This document shows, in pieces, positions 1 to 4,472 of a DNA stretch of 4,472 nt. The stretch lies in IMG/VR virus record IMGVR_UViG_2734482536_000008. The stretch is one strand, 5' to 3'. A program made the translations under genes and the position numbers. The notes under the pieces were generated by a model. It was not told where the DNA came from, ran no database searches, and saw nothing but the letters and a program-made list of their open reading frames with translations. This DNA comes from a virus (taxonomy: Duplodnaviria; Heunggongvirae; Uroviricota; Caudoviricetes). Position 1 is the first letter of the stretch. The number at the start of each line of letters is the position of its first letter.

Positions 1-25
1 GGGAAAAATATCATCAGATGGCTGC

Positions 26-378
26 TTAAAAAAAGAACAAATGGTAGTGTCCGCTATTGCCAGTACACCTCAATTGCTCTGCGGCTTCGCTCAGAGCTGG
101 CGTATGTTCCCGGCCTACTGATTCACACAGGTAATCAACGAAACCGGACACCAGTTTTCGTTCGCGAGGCGTGATCGCCCCACCGACCGGAGTCCAGTAA
201 TCGAAACCCAGTTGCAGGAGTTTGAAAAAACGCTTGTGGAATGCGTAGTTACACACACGCTTAAAGTCTGCGTGTATCCACTCACCTATTTTGATTTGAT
301 GCAGAAAATCGCAACTCTCCGGCGTCGCCGGGAGAAGTAATCCGGAAGAGGTTTGTTTGACCAGTTGTATATGTGCCA
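26..378 (-). CDS. Hypothetical prophage protein, 117 aa from the ATG at 376-378 (ORF track extends it to a TTG at 419-421)
   Basis: Open frame with no stops. The ATG at 376-378 is preceded by GGAGAAAG about 7 nt upstream on the minus strand. Reads protein-like (MAHIQLVKQTSSG...), but I recognise no family with confidence. The stop lies 25 nt from the window edge. Confidence 0.45.
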
Positions 379-417
379 TCGGCTTTCTCCGGTGGCACGG
401 TGTTACACAGCAGGAGT

Positions 418-705
418 TCAATCCTGCTCAAGATTGTAGATGAGTTTATTCTTCAGCAAAAGCAGAAAACCAGCCTTAAAACCAATCTCTTTCAAAACCC
501 GTAATGATGTGACAAATTCGTCCTCACGCAAAATAAAACCGTCCGTCAGAAGTCCATTACAAAAATAAAATAACACAGCACCGCTCTTCCTTTGTTGAGA
601 TTGCAAACATCTAATGCGGCAATGGCTGACAATCGCTCCATTCTCAACGCGCACAGCATAGAGGCCATTTTCACTAAAAATTTCACGCAATTCTTCGATT
701 TTCAT
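418..705 (-). CDS. Hypothetical small protein, 95 aa
   Basis: ATG at 703-705 preceded by GGAAGGA (SD-like) on the minus strand; stop at 418-420. No recognisable motif. Confidence 0.45.
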   Translation of the reverse strand: MKIEELREIFSENGLYAVRVENGAIVSHCRIRCLQSQQRKSGAVLFYFCNGLLTDGFILREDEFVTSLRVLKEIGFKAGFLLLLKNKLIYNLEQD

Positions 706-786
706 CTTCAGAATCCTTCCAGATAAATAGCTCTCCCCTGTTCGGGGTCCATCCCTCTTCTCCCTGCGCGCTACTTAAGTGAGTCG

Positions 787-814
787 ATTCTATCTGCGAA
801 GGTGCGCGAATCAA
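787..814 (-). promoter_or_regulatory. Candidate sigma70 promoter for the 95-aa gene (TTGATT, 16-nt spacer, TAGAAT on the minus strand)
   Basis: Minus-strand -35 TTGATT (plus 809-814 aatcaa) and -10 TAGAAT (plus 787-792 attcta); predicted start near 780, giving a roughly 75-nt leader. Sequence match only. Confidence 0.3.
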
Positions 815-830
815 ATTCACCGGAAATAAA

Positions 831-877
831 CAACAAAAAACCCGCCGAAACGCTGAGAGATCACAGCGATGGGCGGG
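831..877 (-). terminator. Rho-independent terminator at the end of the hok transcript
   Basis: Minus-strand RNA CCCGCC-CAU-CGCUG-UGAUCUCU-CAGCG-UUU-CGGCGGG (two-tier GC-rich hairpin, plus 841-877) followed directly by UUUUUUGUUGUUUAUUU (plus 831-840 A-run). Confidence 0.6.
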
Positions 878-883
878 TTAAGT

Positions 884-896
884 GCGGGTGCGTTGA
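884..896 (-). promoter_or_regulatory. 3' fold-back (fbi-like) element of hok mRNA, complementary to the predicted mRNA 5' end
   Basis: Plus 884-896 gggtgcgttgagg is the near-perfect reverse complement of plus 1269-1280 cctcaagcaccc (one extra base). In the minus-strand transcript the 5' end GGGUGCUUGAGG can pair with 3' CCUCAACGCACCC, as described for hok-family mRNAs. Confidence 0.45.
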
Positions 897-918
897 GGAT
901 GCCTGACACATCAGAGGT

Positions 919-946
919 GGGCGGGGATGGGATCAGCTCCCCGCCC
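919..946 (-). promoter_or_regulatory. Perfect 9-bp GC-rich stem-loop immediately 3' of the hok stop codon
   Basis: gggcgggga (919-927), 10-nt loop, tccccgccc (938-946). No U-tract follows on either strand, so it is not a terminator; likely a structural element of the hok 3' UTR. Confidence 0.4.
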
Positions 947-954
947 GGTCACTC

Positions 955-1110
955 TTACTTCCTGGATTCGTAGTCTACGAAGACAGCGACCTCCGTCTGG
1001 CCGGTTCGGATTCGTACCTCACAGAGGTCTTTCCTCGTTACCAGTGCCGTCACTATGACGGTTAAACAGATGACGATCAGGGCGATTAACATCGCCTTTT
1101 GCTGCTTCAT
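955..1110 (-). CDS. hok: Hok/Gef family type I toxin, 51 aa
   Basis: Translation MKQQKAMLIALIVICLTVIVTALVTRKDLCEVRIRTGQTEVAVFVDYESRK is near-identical over most of its length to HokD/RelF and Gef/HokC as I recall them (single transmembrane helix, conserved TRK-LCE-R-G-EVA core). ATG at 1108-1110 with AAGGAG 9 nt upstream. The specific paralog is not resolved. Confidence 0.85.
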   Translation of the reverse strand: MKQQKAMLIALIVICLTVIVTALVTRKDLCEVRIRTGQTEVAVFVDYESRK

Positions 1111-1167
1111 AGCCTGCTTCTCCTTGCCTTTCGGCATGTAAGAGGCTAACCTACATGTGCAAAGCAT
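955..1167 (-). CDS. mok: mok-like in-frame upstream reading frame, 70 codons, sharing the hok stop
   Basis: ATG at 1165-1167 opens a frame that runs into hok in the same frame, 19 codons longer. This matches the mok/hok arrangement in which mok is a 5'-extended frame ending at the hok stop, as I recall for mokC/hokC. Confidence 0.45.
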   Translation of the reverse strand: MLCTCRLASYMPKGKEKQAMKQQKAMLIALIVICLTVIVTALVTRKDLCEVRIRTGQTEVAVFVDYESRK

Positions 1168-1225
1168 GAAATTGGCCTCAGATTAATGTTAAGCGTCTTG
1201 CCGGACGCGTAATGTTAACTGGGGC
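1150..1225 (+). ncRNA. sok: Predicted Sok-like antisense RNA (position approximate)
   Basis: By analogy with hok/sok, the antisense RNA is transcribed opposite the hok leader across the mok initiation region. A weak plus-strand promoter candidate exists (TTGCCT 1124-1129, 17-nt spacer, TAACCT 1147-1152). Ends are not defined and no clean terminator was found. Confidence 0.25.
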
Positions 1226-1268
1226 TTTTCTCTATCTGCCTTTTGGTGTTCATGCCTGAAGCAGATAG

Positions 1269-1280
1269 CCTCAAGCACCC
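1269..1280 (-). promoter_or_regulatory. Predicted 5' end of hok mRNA (5' partner of the fbi pairing)
   Basis: Lies immediately downstream of the predicted -10 on the minus strand and is complementary to 884-896 (see that feature). Confidence 0.45.
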
Positions 1281-1286
1281 GCAGTC

Positions 1287-1316
1287 ATTCTACTTACCTC
1301 GCCAATATGAAATCAA
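1287..1316 (-). promoter_or_regulatory. Candidate sigma70 promoter of hok/mok mRNA (TTGATT, 18-nt spacer, TAGAAT)
   Basis: Minus-strand -35 TTGATT (plus 1311-1316) and -10 TAGAAT (plus 1287-1292); predicted start near 1280. This gives a leader of about 113 nt to mok and 170 nt to hok, consistent with hok-family mRNA architecture. Confidence 0.5.
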
Positions 1317-1337
1317 TCAGAAAGGTGCCCCATAAAA

Positions 1338-2024
1338 TCACTCCTTCTCTTCTTTACCGTAGTGGAGTTGACCAATTTTGATAAGAGGGCGTCCCTGAGA
1401 TTTGCGGTGTAGATTGGTATCGCGCAGAGAATACACACAGCCACAATATTCCTGCTGATAGAATTTTTCGCGCTTGCTGATTTCAATCATACGGGACGAG
1501 CCGCCCTGCTTGCGCCAGTTATAATCCCAGTACACCATGCCCGGATAATGCGCGACGGCTCGCCGCCCACAGTCGTTAACCTGCTGCATATTTTTCCAGC
1601 GTGAAATGCCCAGTGAACTGCTGATCACACTGAAACCATTTTCAGCGGCGTACAGCGCTGTCCGCTCAAAACGCATGTCAAAACACATGGTGCAACGGAT
1701 CCCTCGTTCGGGCTCCCATTCCATTCCTTTGGCTCGTTCAAACCAGTTGTCTGTGTCGTAATCAGCATCAATAAACGGCACGCCGTGTTGTTCAGCAAAG
1801 CGAATATTCTCATCCTTACGAATTAAATACTCTTTCTGAGGATGAATGTTCGGGTTGTAGAAAAAGATGGTGTAGTCGATTCCCGAGGCCTGAAGCGCCT
1901 CCATCACCTCACCGGAACATGGAGCACAGCAAGAGTGCAGTAGTAGTTTGTTTGCCCCGTTTGGGAGCTCCAATTTGGGCCGTTTGAAATCAGCAACTGT
2001 CATAAATATGTTTATTGGGGTCAT
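1338..2024 (-). CDS. queH: QueH-like (DUF208) putative epoxyqueuosine reductase, Fe-S enzyme, 228 aa
   Basis: Contains [11 protein letters not shown] near the N-terminus plus downstream CTMCF and [11 protein letters not shown] cysteine motifs, which I recognise as the DUF208/QueH signature. No obvious Shine-Dalgarno before the ATG at 2022-2024 or the in-frame ATG at 2001-2003, so the start is uncertain. Family assignment is from memory of motifs. Confidence 0.7.
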
Positions 2025-2171
2025 AAAAATATCAAAGAGTGTAGCATTAGAACGGGGCTATCGGAAACAGATGTGTGACTGCTCCCCGCCCTTTCGGGTG
2101 GTCTCCTGATGATTTGAGGGTGCAGAAATCCCTCCGGTTAAGGATTAAATTTTTAACAGTGCTAAATTTAA

Positions 2172-2528
2172 TTATTCAGTTCTGGATTTTGTCGCCCTGC
2201 GTATCCGCGCTTTCGCGTTACGCTCAATCTGTATCAGCTTTTCTATATTTCTCCGCCTTTCCTGTTCCTCCTGGCGCAATAGCCTTACATCATCTGCCAG
2301 TCTGGTTTCTCTTTTTGCCACAGAGAGCATCCAGTCAAACGGCTCCACAACCGCACCGCAGATTTTACAGCGGACCTGACGCTCTTTTTCGTCAACCCGT
2401 ACAGAGGCGTGATGGCAATATGGTCTTTCCGATGGCTCATAAAGAAAATTAACCTGATTACGAGGGTCATCCTCTTTTACCGGAAATAAAACGATATTGC
2501 TTAACTCATCTTCTGGTTTTATTTCCAT
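2172..2528 (-). CDS. Uncharacterised protein, 119 aa: putative zinc-ribbon (C-H-H ... CxxC) followed by a charged, probably coiled-coil, C-terminal half
   Basis: ATG at 2526-2528 preceded by a strong SD AAGGAGAGGAG; the ORF track's longer version starts at 2585 and abuts the upstream stop. Motif YCHHASVRVDEKERQVRCKICG, then RETRLADDVRLLRQEEQERRRNIEKLIQIERNAKARIRR. No family recognised. Confidence 0.6.
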   Translation of the reverse strand: MEIKPEDELSNIVLFPVKEDDPRNQVNFLYEPSERPYCHHASVRVDEKERQVRCKICGAVVEPFDWMLSVAKRETRLADDVRLLRQEEQERRRNIEKLIQIERNAKARIRRATKSRTE

Positions 2529-2585
2529 GCTCCTCTCCTTTGATGCGAATGCCAGCGGTAATTGAAGCCTGATAGCTAATTTCAT

Positions 2586-3008
2586 TCACAGTATCGCCTC
2601 CTGAAAATTACCCTGATAGAAAGCCAGTACACGCTGCATAGCTTCGCTCTTCCGGCACTCGCGACAGATTATATTCAGGCGCCTGTCGTAGCGGCGTATT
2701 TCTCCGTCAGGTAATGACCAGATAAGGTCCGGATCAACAACAACCGGTTTCCTCACCTTTACTCTCGAGAGTTTTTTGCGGGCGCTTTGCCAGTCCTTGC
2801 GAGCCTGTTCAGACGGGAATAAGCCGTAGCCAGAATTATATACATCACCACTTGCGACCAGTTCTATGCATAAGCGACCGACAGACGCACGACTGATACC
2901 TGTTTCATCTGACAACTGCCGAATCGTGACCCGACCGTCCTGATGCACGAGTTCCACAATTCGCGTCTTCAGTTCTTCCCGCTGTTCGGGAGTAAAAGGT
3001 TTCGCCAT
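2586..3008 (-). CDS. ren: Ren-like protein with N-terminal helix-turn-helix, 140 aa
   Basis: ATG at 3006-3008 with AGGAGG 5 nt upstream, 14 nt after the DnaC-like stop. C-terminal ICRECRKSEAMQRVLAFYQG resembles the phage lambda Ren C-terminus (FKECRQSAAMKRVLAVYG, as I recall it). N-terminal TIRQLSDETGISRASVGRL is HTH-like. The position right after the P-like gene matches lambda O-P-ren order. Confidence 0.55.
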   Translation of the reverse strand: MAKPFTPEQREELKTRIVELVHQDGRVTIRQLSDETGISRASVGRLCIELVASGDVYNSGYGLFPSEQARKDWQSARKKLSRVKVRKPVVVDPDLIWSLPDGEIRRYDRRLNIICRECRKSEAMQRVLAFYQGNFQEAIL

Positions 3009-3022
3009 AAATCCTCCTGAAA

Positions 3023-3684
3023 CTACTTAACAACCCTCGAATGGCTAACATTCGGACGCCAGCTCTCCCAGTTAAAATTCACCCAGCGCCCGNNNNNNNN
3101 NNNNNNNNNNNNNNNNNNNNNNNNNNNNNNNNNNNNNNNNNNNNNNNNNNNNNNNNNNNNNNNNNNNNNNNNNNNNNNNNNNNNNNNNNNNNNNNNNNNN
3201 NNNNNNNNNNNNNNNNNNNNNNNNNNNNNNNNNNNNNNNNNNNNNNNNNNNNNNNNNNNNNNNNNNNNNNNNNNNNNNNNNNNNNNNNNNNNNNNNNNNN
3301 NNNNNNNNNNNNNNNNNNNNNGATAGCTGCCGCTAAGTGATTCTTCCCGGTACCAGGTTTTCCGCTGAACGCAAAATTTGTACACCCGGTCATCAGTTCA
3401 TCGGCGATGGATTTCGCCTGGCTTAACGCGTATCGCTGGCCGTCGTTCTGCACCTGGTAATTCGCAAACGAGCATTTACGGTGCAACGGCTGGATGCCTG
3501 AGCGATTCAGAATTTTTTCCACCCGCAACTGGCGATTCAGGCGGTTGATCTCCTCGCTACGTTTCTGGCCTTCAGCAAGTTGCCACTCGCGCCACTCCGC
3601 TACCGTTCTGAATGGGGCGGTTACATGTGGCGGGGTCAGTCGGCGGATGCGTTCCAGAACGCCGCCTGTCGCAATATTTTTCAT
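3023..3684 (-). CDS. dnaC: DnaC-like replicative helicase loader (phage P-function analogue, AAA+ ATPase), interrupted by the N run
   Basis: N-terminal 120 aa align closely to E. coli DnaC, including NRSGIQPLH, CSF-NYQV and the Walker A motif FSGKPGTGKNHLAAAI. The C-terminal tail after the gap (GRWVNFNWESWRPNVSHSRVVK) matches the DnaC C-terminus (LWVIFNWDSYRSRVTGKEY). ATG at 3682-3684, stop TAG at 3023-3025. The two halves are in different frames across a 229-nt N run, so the true length is unknown. Confidence 0.85.
3093..3321. other. Run of 229 N (assembly gap or masked sequence) inside the DnaC-like gene
   Basis: Directly visible. Its length is not a multiple of 3, which explains the frame change between the two gene halves. 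Confidence 0.95.
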
Positions 3685-3690
3685 GGTCCG

Positions 3691-4367
3691 TTACCCCCTG
3701 AAGCCTGGCGGGATCGCACTGTCCGGCAACGAGACGGTGTTAACCTGTCGGAGCAACGTCTCAGGCCGAACACCTTTCGGCGCGAACAGGCCCTGGTATT
3801 CATTGGCGATGCTGTGTCGAATCACCTGCTCAGGTGTAAAACCCTGCTGACGGAATTTTTCCAGTTCCCGTATCGCCCCGTTAGCGCCCTGCTCCGTTCG
3901 AATCGGTTTTCGCAATGCCTGTCTGAACCGGACCCACTCATGCCAGAGTGTTTCCGGCAACCAATCGGGCAGCTCAATAGCCTCCGGCTCGAATTTTTTA
4001 GACGCTCGTTTTTGGCGAGGGGGAGATCAGTATTTAGATCTTCCTCTTCCTCTTCCTCTGGTAACGCTTTTTGATCCGTTTGTGTAACGCTGGCAGCGTT
4101 ACCTTTTCGTTTCAGTTCGCGTATTTTTGTTACTCGCTCGTTTGTAACCGCCCGTTTTTTTTAGAGCTTTTTCCGTTATGACGTTCAAAGTTAGGTAGAG
4201 AAAGCCCTCCGTCATTTTCGACCAGCCATCCAACCTGAATTAACGCATCAGCAAAACCAGACATAAAAGTGATGCGATCTATTGCACTTTTTGTAACGCC
4301 GCGAGCGTTACAATCTGCATTACCGTCTATCATTTGTTGATCCGCCCATGCCCAGAAGCGAATAACC
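3691..4367 (-). pseudogene. Phage replication-initiator/primosomal gene with DnaT-like C-terminal domain, split across three frames
   Basis: The C-terminal segment (3691..about 4026) ends NTVSLPDSAIPPGFRG and contains KFEPEAIELPDWLPE, matching the E. coli DnaT C-terminal domain (NTVSEPDSQIPPGFRG; PDWQPD). Its stop is 6 nt before the DnaC-like start, like chromosomal dnaT-dnaC. Upstream, coding continues without stops in a second frame (about 4160..3996, KKRAVTNERVTKIRELKRKGNAASVTQTDQKALPEEEEEEDLNTDLPLAKNERLK) and a third (4367..4130, ending HNGKSSKKNGRLQTSE stop). The frames change at an A8 tract (plus T8, 4155-4162) and near an A6 tract (plus 3994-3999). The 5' end is either the ATG at 4331-4333 or lies beyond the IS at 4368. 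Confidence 0.55.
4039..4059. repeat. Hexanucleotide tandem repeat (TCTTCC/GAGGAA, about 3.5 units) encoding a Glu6 linker on the minus strand
   Basis: Plus tcttcctcttcctcttcctct; on the minus strand GAG GAA GAG GAA GAG GAA in the middle frame of the replication gene. Confidence 0.5.
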
Positions 4368-4472
4368 TGAGGTAGCCTGAGTTTAACGGACACTCCTTCC
4401 TGAAATAGAATGGCATCAGAAGGAGCTAATAATGAGCAGAAAAACCCAACGTTACTCTAAAGAGTTCAAAGC
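4368..4472 (+). mobile_element. IS3-family insertion sequence, left end (IS600-like), continuing past the window edge
   Basis: A terminal TGAGGTAGCC... at 4368 with GGACAC at IR positions 21-26, the same position as in the IS3 left inverted repeat as I recall it. The orfA ATG follows 64 bp after the IR start with AGGAG 8 nt upstream, a typical IS3-family layout. Only one end is in the window, so the boundary is inferred. Confidence 0.7.
4432..4472 (+). CDS. IS3-family transposase OrfA, N-terminal 13 codons (partial, runs off the window)
   Basis: ATGAGCAGAAAAACCCAACGTTACTCTAAAGAGTTCAAAGC translates MSRKTQRYSKEFK, which I recognise as the start of IS600/IS3-family OrfA (HTH protein). Confidence 0.75.
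   Translation, partial: MSRKTQRYSKEFK

Follow-up and report, generated by a model that had tools for sequence, protein, structure and literature searches.

The window analysed here, a stretch of 4,472 nucleotides, holds four co-oriented, tightly packed minus-strand genes downstream of a DnaC-like gene, all of them intact: a homologue of lambda Ren, a gene for a small zinc-ribbon protein, queH and a hok/mok/sok locus (Table 1). An earlier note on this DNA had reported this run of genes and had called the combination unusual, and both points are borne out, as the whole block was found in only 2 out of 5426 complete Escherichia coli genomes. The setting can be read from an intact relative (L001), which is 99.9% identical and whose similarity by blastn spans 73 to 4368 of the window. 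In this relative the prophage is integrated at ybhA, and the block sits between ydaU/ydaV and a series consisting of DUF1367, DUF1364, DUF1133, tRNAs and lysis genes. The DnaC-like gene is annotated there as 'ydaV: ATP-binding protein'; in the window it is interrupted by an N-mask at 3093-3321, which corresponds to 314 nt in the intact relative. The earlier note had placed 'left-end genes' on the other side of the block, but the actual neighbours downstream of hok are nin/late-regulatory genes, namely a 95-aa phrog_340 ORF and DUF1367. The two edges of the window are formed by IS600 copies in the same orientation, the second of which truncates an O-like replication initiator gene and leaves the initiator broken. 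We consider it highly probable that positions 955-3008 are the accessory part of the ren-nin region in a lambdoid prophage of the Rac/Qin type that has become defective, and that this part is filled with independent modules. The host of the prophage remnant is most likely Shigella.

Table 1. Features located in the window, with strand and supporting evidence
Feature	Position	Strand	Evidence
IS600 copy, 3' end; truncates DUF1367 gene	1..72	+	100% match to annotated IS600 ends
Complete hok/mok/sok type I toxin-antitoxin locus, sok predicted	835..1316	-	Rfam, Pfam, promoter-like site, folds
hok terminator hairpin with U-run	880-835	-	fold z -5.6
hok mRNA, 5' end and 3' fold-back element	~1280 (5' end); ~898-886 (3' element)	-	mRNA fold
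Hok, 51 aa	1110-955	-	PF01848 E 9.8e-23, 79.9 bits vs cut-off 22
Mok, 70 aa, in frame with hok	1167-955	-	ORF
Predicted Sok antisense RNA: long hairpin then GGGGCUUUUCU	1158..1236	+	fold -30.4 kcal/mol, z -4.4
hok promoter-like TTGATT-18-TAGAAT	1316-1287	-	promoter scan
queH, 221 aa	1338..2003	-	PF02677 E 1.9e-65
Zinc-ribbon/QueH intergenic spacer with recombination junction ~2074-2086	2025..2171	-	blastn module ends
Zinc-ribbon (CxH...CxxC) and long basic helix protein, 118 aa	2172..2528	-	phrog_1621 E 3e-56
Ren homologue (DUF977), 140 aa	2586..3008	-	PF06163 E 1.1e-33; HTH_24; phrog_142 E 2.7e-44
ydaV / DnaC-like replication ATPase gene	3023..3684	-	weak IstB_IS21 match; coordinates via blastn mapping
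Second IS600 copy, 5' end; same orientation	4369..4472	+	100% match to annotated IS600 starts

The four genes and their products

Sequence comparison identifies the first gene as a true Ren homologue, as the earlier note had it. Its product falls into phrog_142, which is described as 'Ren-like exclusion protein', and its ATG lies 14 nt past the stop of the ydaV-like gene (3023), as ren follows P in lambda. In a global alignment the protein aligns across the full length of lambda Ren, and both share the HTH and a C-terminal NxxxxECRxSxxMxRVLxxY motif; by BLASTP, 12/20 residues are identical at the C-terminus (E 3e-7). The homologue combines a winged HTH at its N-terminus with the C-terminal motif of Ren and carries ~30 inserted residues that lambda Ren lacks; at 140 aa it is longer than lambda Ren (96 aa), which itself does not reach Pfam DUF977. 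The dN/dS of the gene is 0.11-0.13. We picture its product as a small winged-HTH protein that occupies the Ren position and would travel with the replication module. A role in replication or in Rex-type exclusion may be proposed solely by analogy with lambda Ren, and no rexAB genes are present within the window.

The second gene starts at an ATG at 2528 that is preceded by an AGGAG Shine-Dalgarno sequence and agrees with the N-termini of homologues, giving a protein one residue shorter than the 119 aa assumed before; the zinc ribbon that had been proposed for it is confirmed. Among homologues, C38, H40, C54 and C57 are invariant and the C-terminal helix is conserved, and the AF2 model (pLDDT 75) places beta-hairpins at 43-61 and a predicted helix at 63-117. 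With a dN/dS of 0.03-0.04 the gene is strongly conserved. A sequence search of the PDB returned only noise (S27E, E 0.55), and Foldseek found no PDB match to the model at E <= 0.001; its hits were no more than generic TFIIB-type ribbons. Nor was there any match in NCBIfam or any similarity to lambda Ea22 detectable by BLASTP. Most likely the protein forms oligomers through a coiled coil and binds or regulates some macromolecule of the host or the phage, and it possibly interacts with the product of a neighbouring gene.

The third gene had been labelled 'QueH-like', a tRNA-modification-type enzyme. The family was right, and the qualifier can be dropped: to judge from its sequence, the protein is a standard family member and an orthodox cobalamin-independent epoxyqueuosine reductase. 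It scores 220.6 bits against PF02677 (cut-off 23.5) over profile positions 1-174 of 175, and it matches the solved QueH of Thermotoga maritima, 7lc5, at E 5e-22; NCBIfam gave no match. An alternative upstream ATG at 2024 would extend the protein to 228 aa (2024-1338). In this longer numbering, the cysteine motifs CC (32-33), CxxC (111, 114) and CxC (194, 196) align with those of 7lc5. In the solved structure these conserved motifs presumably supply the ligands of the Fe-S/iron centre. Where T. maritima QueH has CCAPD, the prophage protein has CCAPC. No Shine-Dalgarno sequence or promoter of its own could be recognised for queH. Its identity to the QueH proteins of other Enterobacterales, including Erwinia, Photorhabdus, Providencia and Proteus, is 80-90%. 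Two of these relatives outside prophages were examined; both lie in an ordinary chromosomal context, one of them between purL and glrK-type genes, and neither has a hok gene among its called neighbours. The dN/dS of 0.03-0.05 indicates strong purifying selection, which, together with the high identity to cellular QueH, fits an unchanged enzymatic role. All four proteins of the block are already in RefSeq, and the exact QueH protein, which had been put forward as a novel component, is listed there as 'epoxyqueuosine reductase QueH' on at least 1000 contigs.

The last gene belongs to a locus that, as had been claimed, possesses its own promoter-like site and terminator. The hok leader scores 117 bits against Rfam RF01794 (gathering score 59), with the full model 1-157 matched at 1280-1105. 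In the minimum free energy structure of the full mRNA (z -8.4), 1280-1269 pairs with ~898-886, which corresponds to tac/fbi-type 5'-3' pairing. The Hok subfamilies of NCBIfam gave sub-threshold matches only (score 55, cut-off 73), and RefSeq names the exact protein HokD. The predicted Sok is complementary to the mok translation-initiation region, and its position follows known hok/sok architecture; a candidate Sok promoter, TTGCCT-17-TAACCT (~1124-1153), was read by eye, is weak relative to the consensus and was not called by the automatic scan. Equipped with a promoter and a terminator of its own and with the predicted antisense RNA, the locus would be an autonomous type I toxin-antitoxin cassette. 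In such a cassette the unstable Sok would block translation of mok and hok; once transcription ceases or the cell loses the locus, Sok would decay, 3' processing would activate the stable hok mRNA, and Hok would then depolarise the membrane. Such a cassette would stabilise the DNA segment that carries it and may abort some phage infections.

Gene distribution and module boundaries

Our results indicate that the block was assembled from separate pieces. The zinc-ribbon gene occurs in 1679 (31%) and QueH in 985 (~18%) of the 5426 genomes, and the junction between the two in 2, whereas the junction of DUF977 with the zinc-ribbon gene is found in 975. Conserved linkage of several genes across lineages is thus not seen. 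Prophage-borne QueH also occurs in major Shigella lineages. Gene order varies as well. In phage HannyBb and in E. coli B/C the order is DUF977, a methyltransferase fragment, QueH and hok, while phage vB_EcoS-640R1 has DUF977, the zinc-ribbon gene, other small ORFs and hok, and is devoid of QueH. Among the sampled viral contigs, the interval from DUF977 to hok shows at least 15 architectures differing in content and length; an HNH-like ORF is one example of the other cargo found there. The co-variation of the zinc-ribbon gene and queH that the earlier note had suggested looking for is therefore not borne out.

The nucleotide comparison agrees with this picture. By blastn, a QueH module spans 1332-2074 and a zinc-ribbon module 2086-2868, with sharp boundaries at 1332-1335 and 2074-2086. 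A further mosaic breakpoint lies inside the DUF977 gene near 2868, where similarity to other alleles begins. The 2025-2171 spacer received no minus-strand promoter or terminator call, and its fold z is only -1.4. Two common sub-modules, DUF977-zinc-ribbon and QueH-hok, have been joined here by rare recombination, and this rare join has become fixed in a much-sequenced Shigella lineage, probably a clonal one. That the gene combination is rare in E. coli thus reflects shuffled modules rather than a conserved system, and the co-orientation of the four genes is explained by their all riding the early-right transcription unit. The block would then consist of modules that were each acquired, and can each be exchanged, independently of the others, and we regard it as an ordinary, already annotated example of lambdoid nin-region mosaicism. 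The zinc-ribbon gene would be one of the small early genes that are shuffled in this way, and QueH a housekeeping gene of cells, picked up from the chromosome of a member of the Enterobacterales.

Functional interpretation

Among the four genes, the captured QueH is the most interesting; it duplicates a host function without requiring vitamin B12. The host enzyme, QueG, depends on B12, and its gene is present in 5426/5426 complete E. coli genomes; the idea that QueH replaces a lost host queG was thus rejected for E. coli. To our knowledge, E. coli and Shigella carry out no de novo B12 synthesis. In host Asp, Asn, His and Tyr tRNAs, QueH would reduce the epoxyqueuosine at position 34 to queuosine by means of an Fe-S/iron site instead of cobalamin, and because it works without cobalamin it may back up the universally present QueG. 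While the identity of the enzyme is read from its sequence, the physiological benefit of such a backup is something we infer. It would be tempting to go further and to see in the prophage QueH a selected lysogenic-conversion gene and, separately, in the zinc-ribbon protein an unrecognised phage regulator or anti-defence factor, although we hold the two claims taken together to be rather doubtful. If they were true, QueH would maintain full queuosine modification of tRNA under conditions in which QueG has no access to cobalamin, for example in an inflamed or B12-competitive gut; this would alter the decoding of NAU/NAC codons and thereby how fit or virulent the lysogen is, or how the phage is translated. 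Our literature search returned no paper on prophage-encoded QueH of E. coli or Shigella. That a non-homologous, cobalamin-independent epoxyqueuosine reductase resides on prophages in about one-fifth of E. coli genomes, always alongside QueG, leads to a testable hypothesis, namely that prophages may keep the queuosine status of tRNA steady when B12 is limiting. Likewise phrog_1621, being widespread, strongly conserved and uncharacterised, would be worth including in screens for small phage regulators or anti-defence proteins.

QueH and hok/sok could also form a functional two-gene cassette, in which toxin-antitoxin addiction retains a QueH moron or Hok is coupled to tRNA modification. In support of this idea, the QueH-hok junction is present in 741 of the 5426 genomes, that is, intact in ~75% of the 985 carriers of QueH; hok lies within 2.5 kb in most sampled QueH-bearing viral contigs; and in HannyBb and E. 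coli B/C QueH still precedes hok, although an extra insert separates the two. However, 4729 genomes contain hok-like sequence, frequently more than one copy of it, so that most hok loci are without QueH, and hok is set off from QueH both by the sharp boundary at 1332-1335 and by its own promoter, predicted antisense RNA and terminator. Moreover, the E. coli copies of QueH are 90-100% identical at the nucleotide level, so that one insertion upstream of a hok gene already in place, passed on by descent, could account for the linkage; the chromosomal relatives mentioned above, with no hok among their called neighbours, argue in the same direction. QueH and hok thus do not assort freely, which we attribute to recent common descent of one cassette, its copies being 95-99% identical in nucleotide sequence, and we consider a functional pairing unlikely.

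That all four genes act as one defence or anti-defence system, with a Ren-type anti-exclusion factor, a sensor, a tRNA-directed effector and Hok as executioner, is very improbable. The four genes are co-oriented and tightly packed, and hok/sok of plasmid R1 was reported to exclude T4 (Pecota and Wood 1996); our literature search on this exclusion found nothing useful. Lambda Ren, for its part, is linked to Rex exclusion and reportedly interacts with the Rex proteins according to two-hybrid data cited in bioRxiv 10.1101/2021.04.19.439022. However, each gene is abundant without the others. The earlier note had marked joint action of the genes as speculation, to be given up should they prove independently distributed; the zinc-ribbon gene and QueH are so distributed, and the idea fails on the note's own terms. 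The distribution thus already brings it close to refuted. The defence search suggested earlier likewise assigned none of the four proteins to a defence family: a scan of six proteins against PADLOC-DB 2.0, whose 2023 coverage is without anti-defence genes or defence systems described later, gave nothing specific: DUF977 did not rise above HTH-level noise (best E 0.0017), and there was no match for the zinc-ribbon protein, QueH or Hok. The orthodox character of QueH, with its close cellular relatives in ordinary contexts and its strong purifying selection, argues against the idea as well. Least credible of all, and rejected, is an action of QueH on 7-deazaguanine-modified phage or host DNA (anti-restriction) instead of tRNA: phages do place 7-deazaguanines in DNA via queuosine-pathway enzymes (PMC6884629 and PMC10516641), but within the 26 kb of L001 that were examined neither a DpdA/Tgt-type transglycosylase nor genes for making preQ0 are annotated, epoxyqueuosine is made on tRNA by QueA (PMC9508795), and the protein is near-identical to cellular QueH.

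Comparison with known systems

Within the QueH (DUF208, PF02677) family, the present copy differs in being borne by a prophage nin region and in residing in a host that already has QueG. The zinc-ribbon protein has ties to the Ead/Ea22-like proteins of the lambdoid exo-xis region. In Stx phage ArgO145 its gene lies in the early-left ead/Ea22 region, far from the other three genes, where it directly follows and overlaps an ead/Ea22-like gene, and in an Escherichia marmotae protein (P0002) an Ea22-type N-terminal module is fused to the whole zinc-ribbon sequence; here, in contrast, the nin region encodes it as a separate protein of 118 aa. The hok locus shares with hok/sok of plasmid R1 and with chromosomal hokD (relF) of the E. 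coli Qin prophage the Hok/Gef toxin, the in-frame Mok, a leader matching Rfam, the 5'-3' fold-back pairing and a predicted antisense hairpin with terminator. In K-12, hokD follows relBE and is not known to have the upstream regulatory elements, whereas here the full leader, mok and the predicted sok region are present and the upstream neighbour is QueH.

The closest parallel to the block as a whole is the lambda ren-nin region. Both occupy the slot after the replication genes and before Q and the late genes, both are co-oriented in the early-right operon with a Ren homologue in first position, and both have the mosaic, dispensable content, drawn from a shared gene pool, of lambdoid ren-nin regions. 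The nin region has been described as a non-essential pool of 30-50 genes, of which each phage carries ~10 (PMC5630979). What differs is the cargo: the slot that in lambda holds NinB-NinI holds here the zinc-ribbon protein, QueH and hok/sok, followed by the 95-aa ORF and DUF1367.

Gene content and prophage position

The minus strand carries all real genes of the window, which in the direction of transcription are the O-like fragments, a ydaV/DnaC-like gene, a block of four genes (a DUF977 gene homologous to ren, a zinc-ribbon gene, queH and hok/mok/sok), a 95-aa ORF and DUF1367. We conclude that the block is an ordinary, already annotated mosaic of accessory genes carried by a prophage remnant that lies between two IS600 copies. 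The intact, 99.9% identical counterpart of the window in Escherichia coli FDAARGOS_944 is part of a lambdoid prophage integrated beside ybhA, in which int-xis, recombination genes, repressor/Cro, YdaT, an O-like gene and ydaV precede DUF977, a hypothetical protein, QueH and hokD; after hokD come another hypothetical protein, DUF1367, DUF1364 and DUF1133, then four tRNAs and the lysis and head genes. In lambda, ren and the nin genes hold the same position, and this gene order therefore places the block at ren/nin rather than beside left-end genes, as the earlier note had described it. Its observation of the four genes is confirmed, and its gene calls are largely right.

Features of the window
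Feature	Position	Strand	Details
IS600 copy, last 72 nt	1-72		same orientation as second copy
DUF1367 gene, truncated	~379-73	minus	
95-aa ORF	705-418	minus	phrog_340
hok/mok/sok locus	~1316-835	minus	
QueH, full length	2003-1338	minus	PF02677, E 1.9e-65
Zinc-ribbon protein, 118 aa	2528-2172	minus	phrog_1621, function unannotated
Ren homologue, 140 aa	3008-2586	minus	DUF977, E 1.1e-33; N-terminal winged HTH
ydaV/DnaC-like ATPase gene	3684-3023	minus	interrupted by N run
O-like replication initiator fragments	4368 down to 3691	minus	
Second IS600 copy, first 104 nt	4369-4472		same orientation as first copy

The label Ren-like is justified by homology, with Rex protection as a putative function, because the protein falls in phrog_142 ('Ren-like exclusion protein', E 2.7e-44) and lambda Ren lines up with it along its entire length in a multiple alignment. 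The two share HTH residues and the C-terminal motif N-x4-ECR-x-S-x2-M-x-RVL-x2-Y, and differ by a ~30-residue insert in the DUF977 protein. BLASTP aligned only the C-terminal 20 residues with lambda Ren (60% identity, E 3e-7), and lambda Ren reached no match to the Pfam DUF977 model. Nucleotide similarity to other DUF977 alleles starts only at ~2868 (blastn), which indicates a mosaic breakpoint within the gene, and thus that the first third of the gene, with the HTH, belongs to another allele than the conserved two thirds at the C-terminus. This N-terminal part may co-vary with the upstream replication gene, whose type is ydaV here and O-only in the loci of E. coli B/C and phage HannyBb (L002, L004) and in a further locus (L006).

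The toxin locus encodes Hok (51 aa) and Mok, its 70-aa in-frame extension (PF01848). A promoter-like site at 1316-1287 is consistent with an mRNA start at ~1280, the leader matches the entire Rfam model RF01794 (117 bits), and the 446-nt transcript is predicted to pair its 5' end with a 3' element (z -8.4) and to end in a hairpin and U-run (z -5.6). On the opposite strand, a long hairpin followed by a U-run at 1158-1236 (z -4.4) is the predicted counterpart of the expected Sok RNA; its predicted promoter is weak relative to consensus and absent from automatic calls. RF01794, the 'sok antitoxin' model, matches the hok-sense strand at 1105-1280, where its 157 positions span the hok mRNA leader from end to end, with no match on the ~70-nt antisense strand expected to encode Sok. 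The 95-aa ORF has no Pfam match, and its markedly low G+C (39.6% versus 46-51% in its neighbours) suggests another foreign insert.

QueH and the zinc-ribbon protein

QueH aligns to the solved T. maritima enzyme with every cysteine motif in register. Its identity to QueH of Erwinia, Photorhabdus, Providencia, Proteus, Pantoea and others is 80-90%, and the two closest relatives whose loci were examined have ordinary chromosomal surroundings: one is flanked by purL and glrK-type genes, and the other adjoins a LysR regulator. Together with a dN/dS of 0.03-0.05, this argues that QueH is probably a captured housekeeping gene whose enzymatic role is unchanged. Since every one of the 5426 complete E. 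coli genomes carries the host gene queG, the prophage enzyme is a second, non-homologous route to the same step. QueG reportedly requires cobalamin whereas QueH does not, and E. coli is not known to synthesise cobalamin de novo; the likeliest benefit would be completion of queuosine independently of B12. The four prophage tRNA genes of FDAARGOS_944 (Ile, Arg, Thr and Gly; L001 9540-9850), upstream of the lysis genes, include none of the queuosine substrates (Asp, Asn, His, Tyr); QueH is therefore not matched by substrates borne on the phage. In E. coli B/C and HannyBb, a truncated DNA methyltransferase fragment replaces the zinc-ribbon gene between DUF977 and QueH (L002 11584-11769; L004 4762-4968), which hints that the QueH cassette inserted into, or recombined beside, a methyltransferase gene.

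A cobalamin-independent QueH on a prophage, beside a universal QueG, is one of two points to remember; the other is the zinc-ribbon/coiled-coil family, widespread yet uncharacterised. Its ~150 homologues mostly carry the name "hypothetical", and all those with source names come from Enterobacterales. C38, H40, C54 and C57 are invariant, the basic C-terminal helix is highly conserved, and dN/dS against three alleles is 0.03-0.04, indicating that the protein is under selection. AlphaFold predicts short beta-hairpins and then a single 55-residue helix (pLDDT 75), and searches of the PDB by sequence and by fold gave no significant match. In Stx phage ArgO145 the gene is located in the early-left ead/Ea22 region; the protein shows no similarity to lambda Ea22, and fusion to an Ea22-type N-terminal module was seen in one protein. 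Across three homologues (P0002, from Escherichia marmotae, P0040 and P0015), the partners of the fused zinc-ribbon sequence are this Ead/Ea22 N-terminal module, the C-terminus of DUF977 and a portion of a DUF1133 protein; the fusions are either genuine recombinants or artefacts of frameshifts or annotation. Some IMG/VR prophage contigs (L103, L113, L124, L024) hold two zinc-ribbon copies 1.7 kb apart, both within the DUF977-to-hok interval. A ~94-nt segment just 3' of the gene (2086-2179) occurs twice in ArgO145, after two different genes (L005 ~4307-4400 and 5630-5718), and may be a recurrent module-boundary sequence for recombination.

IS600 ends and decay of the element

Each IS600 copy cuts a gene: DUF1367 at one end and, at 4368, the O-like gene at the other. 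Compared with the FDAARGOS_944 locus, the O-like gene also lacks 10 bp after 4017 and carries a 2-bp insertion (two extra T in the run 4155-4162), and it is a pseudogene. Region 73-3092 differs from the same relative by only four substitutions and zero indels, and the accessory genes are therefore intact within a dead prophage fragment. Because IS600 stands in the same orientation at both window ends, the 4296-bp piece, which includes QueH and hok/sok, is bracketed like a composite transposon, an arrangement read from these ends, with target-site duplications falling outside the window. The N mask at 3093-3321 (229 N) corresponds to 314 nt in L001 (14194-14507) and is not length-preserving, so that every coordinate past it is offset by 85 nt from the real sequence. 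Exact copies of each of the four proteins occur on at least ~1000 contigs, the DUF977 protein on 997. Where the listed exact matches have source names, these are mostly Shigella sonnei and S. flexneri, in keeping with the IS600 load.

Distribution of the four genes

The earlier note had raised, as speculation, that the four genes might act as one conflict system. Among the 5426 complete E. coli genomes, the zinc-ribbon/QueH junction occurs in two although the genes themselves occur in 1679 and 985, respectively, and the whole block in two; the DUF977/zinc-ribbon junction is found in 975 and the QueH/hok junction in 741. In an IMG/VR sample biased towards the window's own lineage, 12 of 80 QueH loci had a zinc-ribbon gene nearby and 12 of 80 zinc-ribbon loci had QueH nearby. 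Between DUF977 and hok, at least 15 distinct lengths and contents occur, further cargo including HNH-like and DUF551-like ORFs (labels read off translations), and blastn module ends are clean (hok, 873-1335; QueH, 1332-2074; zinc ribbon and DUF977 C-terminus, 2086-2868). A PADLOC scan of defence models found no match. Given this independent distribution of the block as a whole, without conserved linkage, the idea of a system is unsupported.

The sole residual linkage is that of QueH with hok. We consider a functional tie between them unlikely: because all E. coli QueH copies are 90-100% identical, the simplest explanation is that the linkage descends recently from one insertion event upstream of a hok locus already in place. 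The nin region of lambdoid phages has been described as drawing on 30-50 non-essential genes, with about ten carried per phage (PMC5630979), and the distribution and module pattern of the block match that description.
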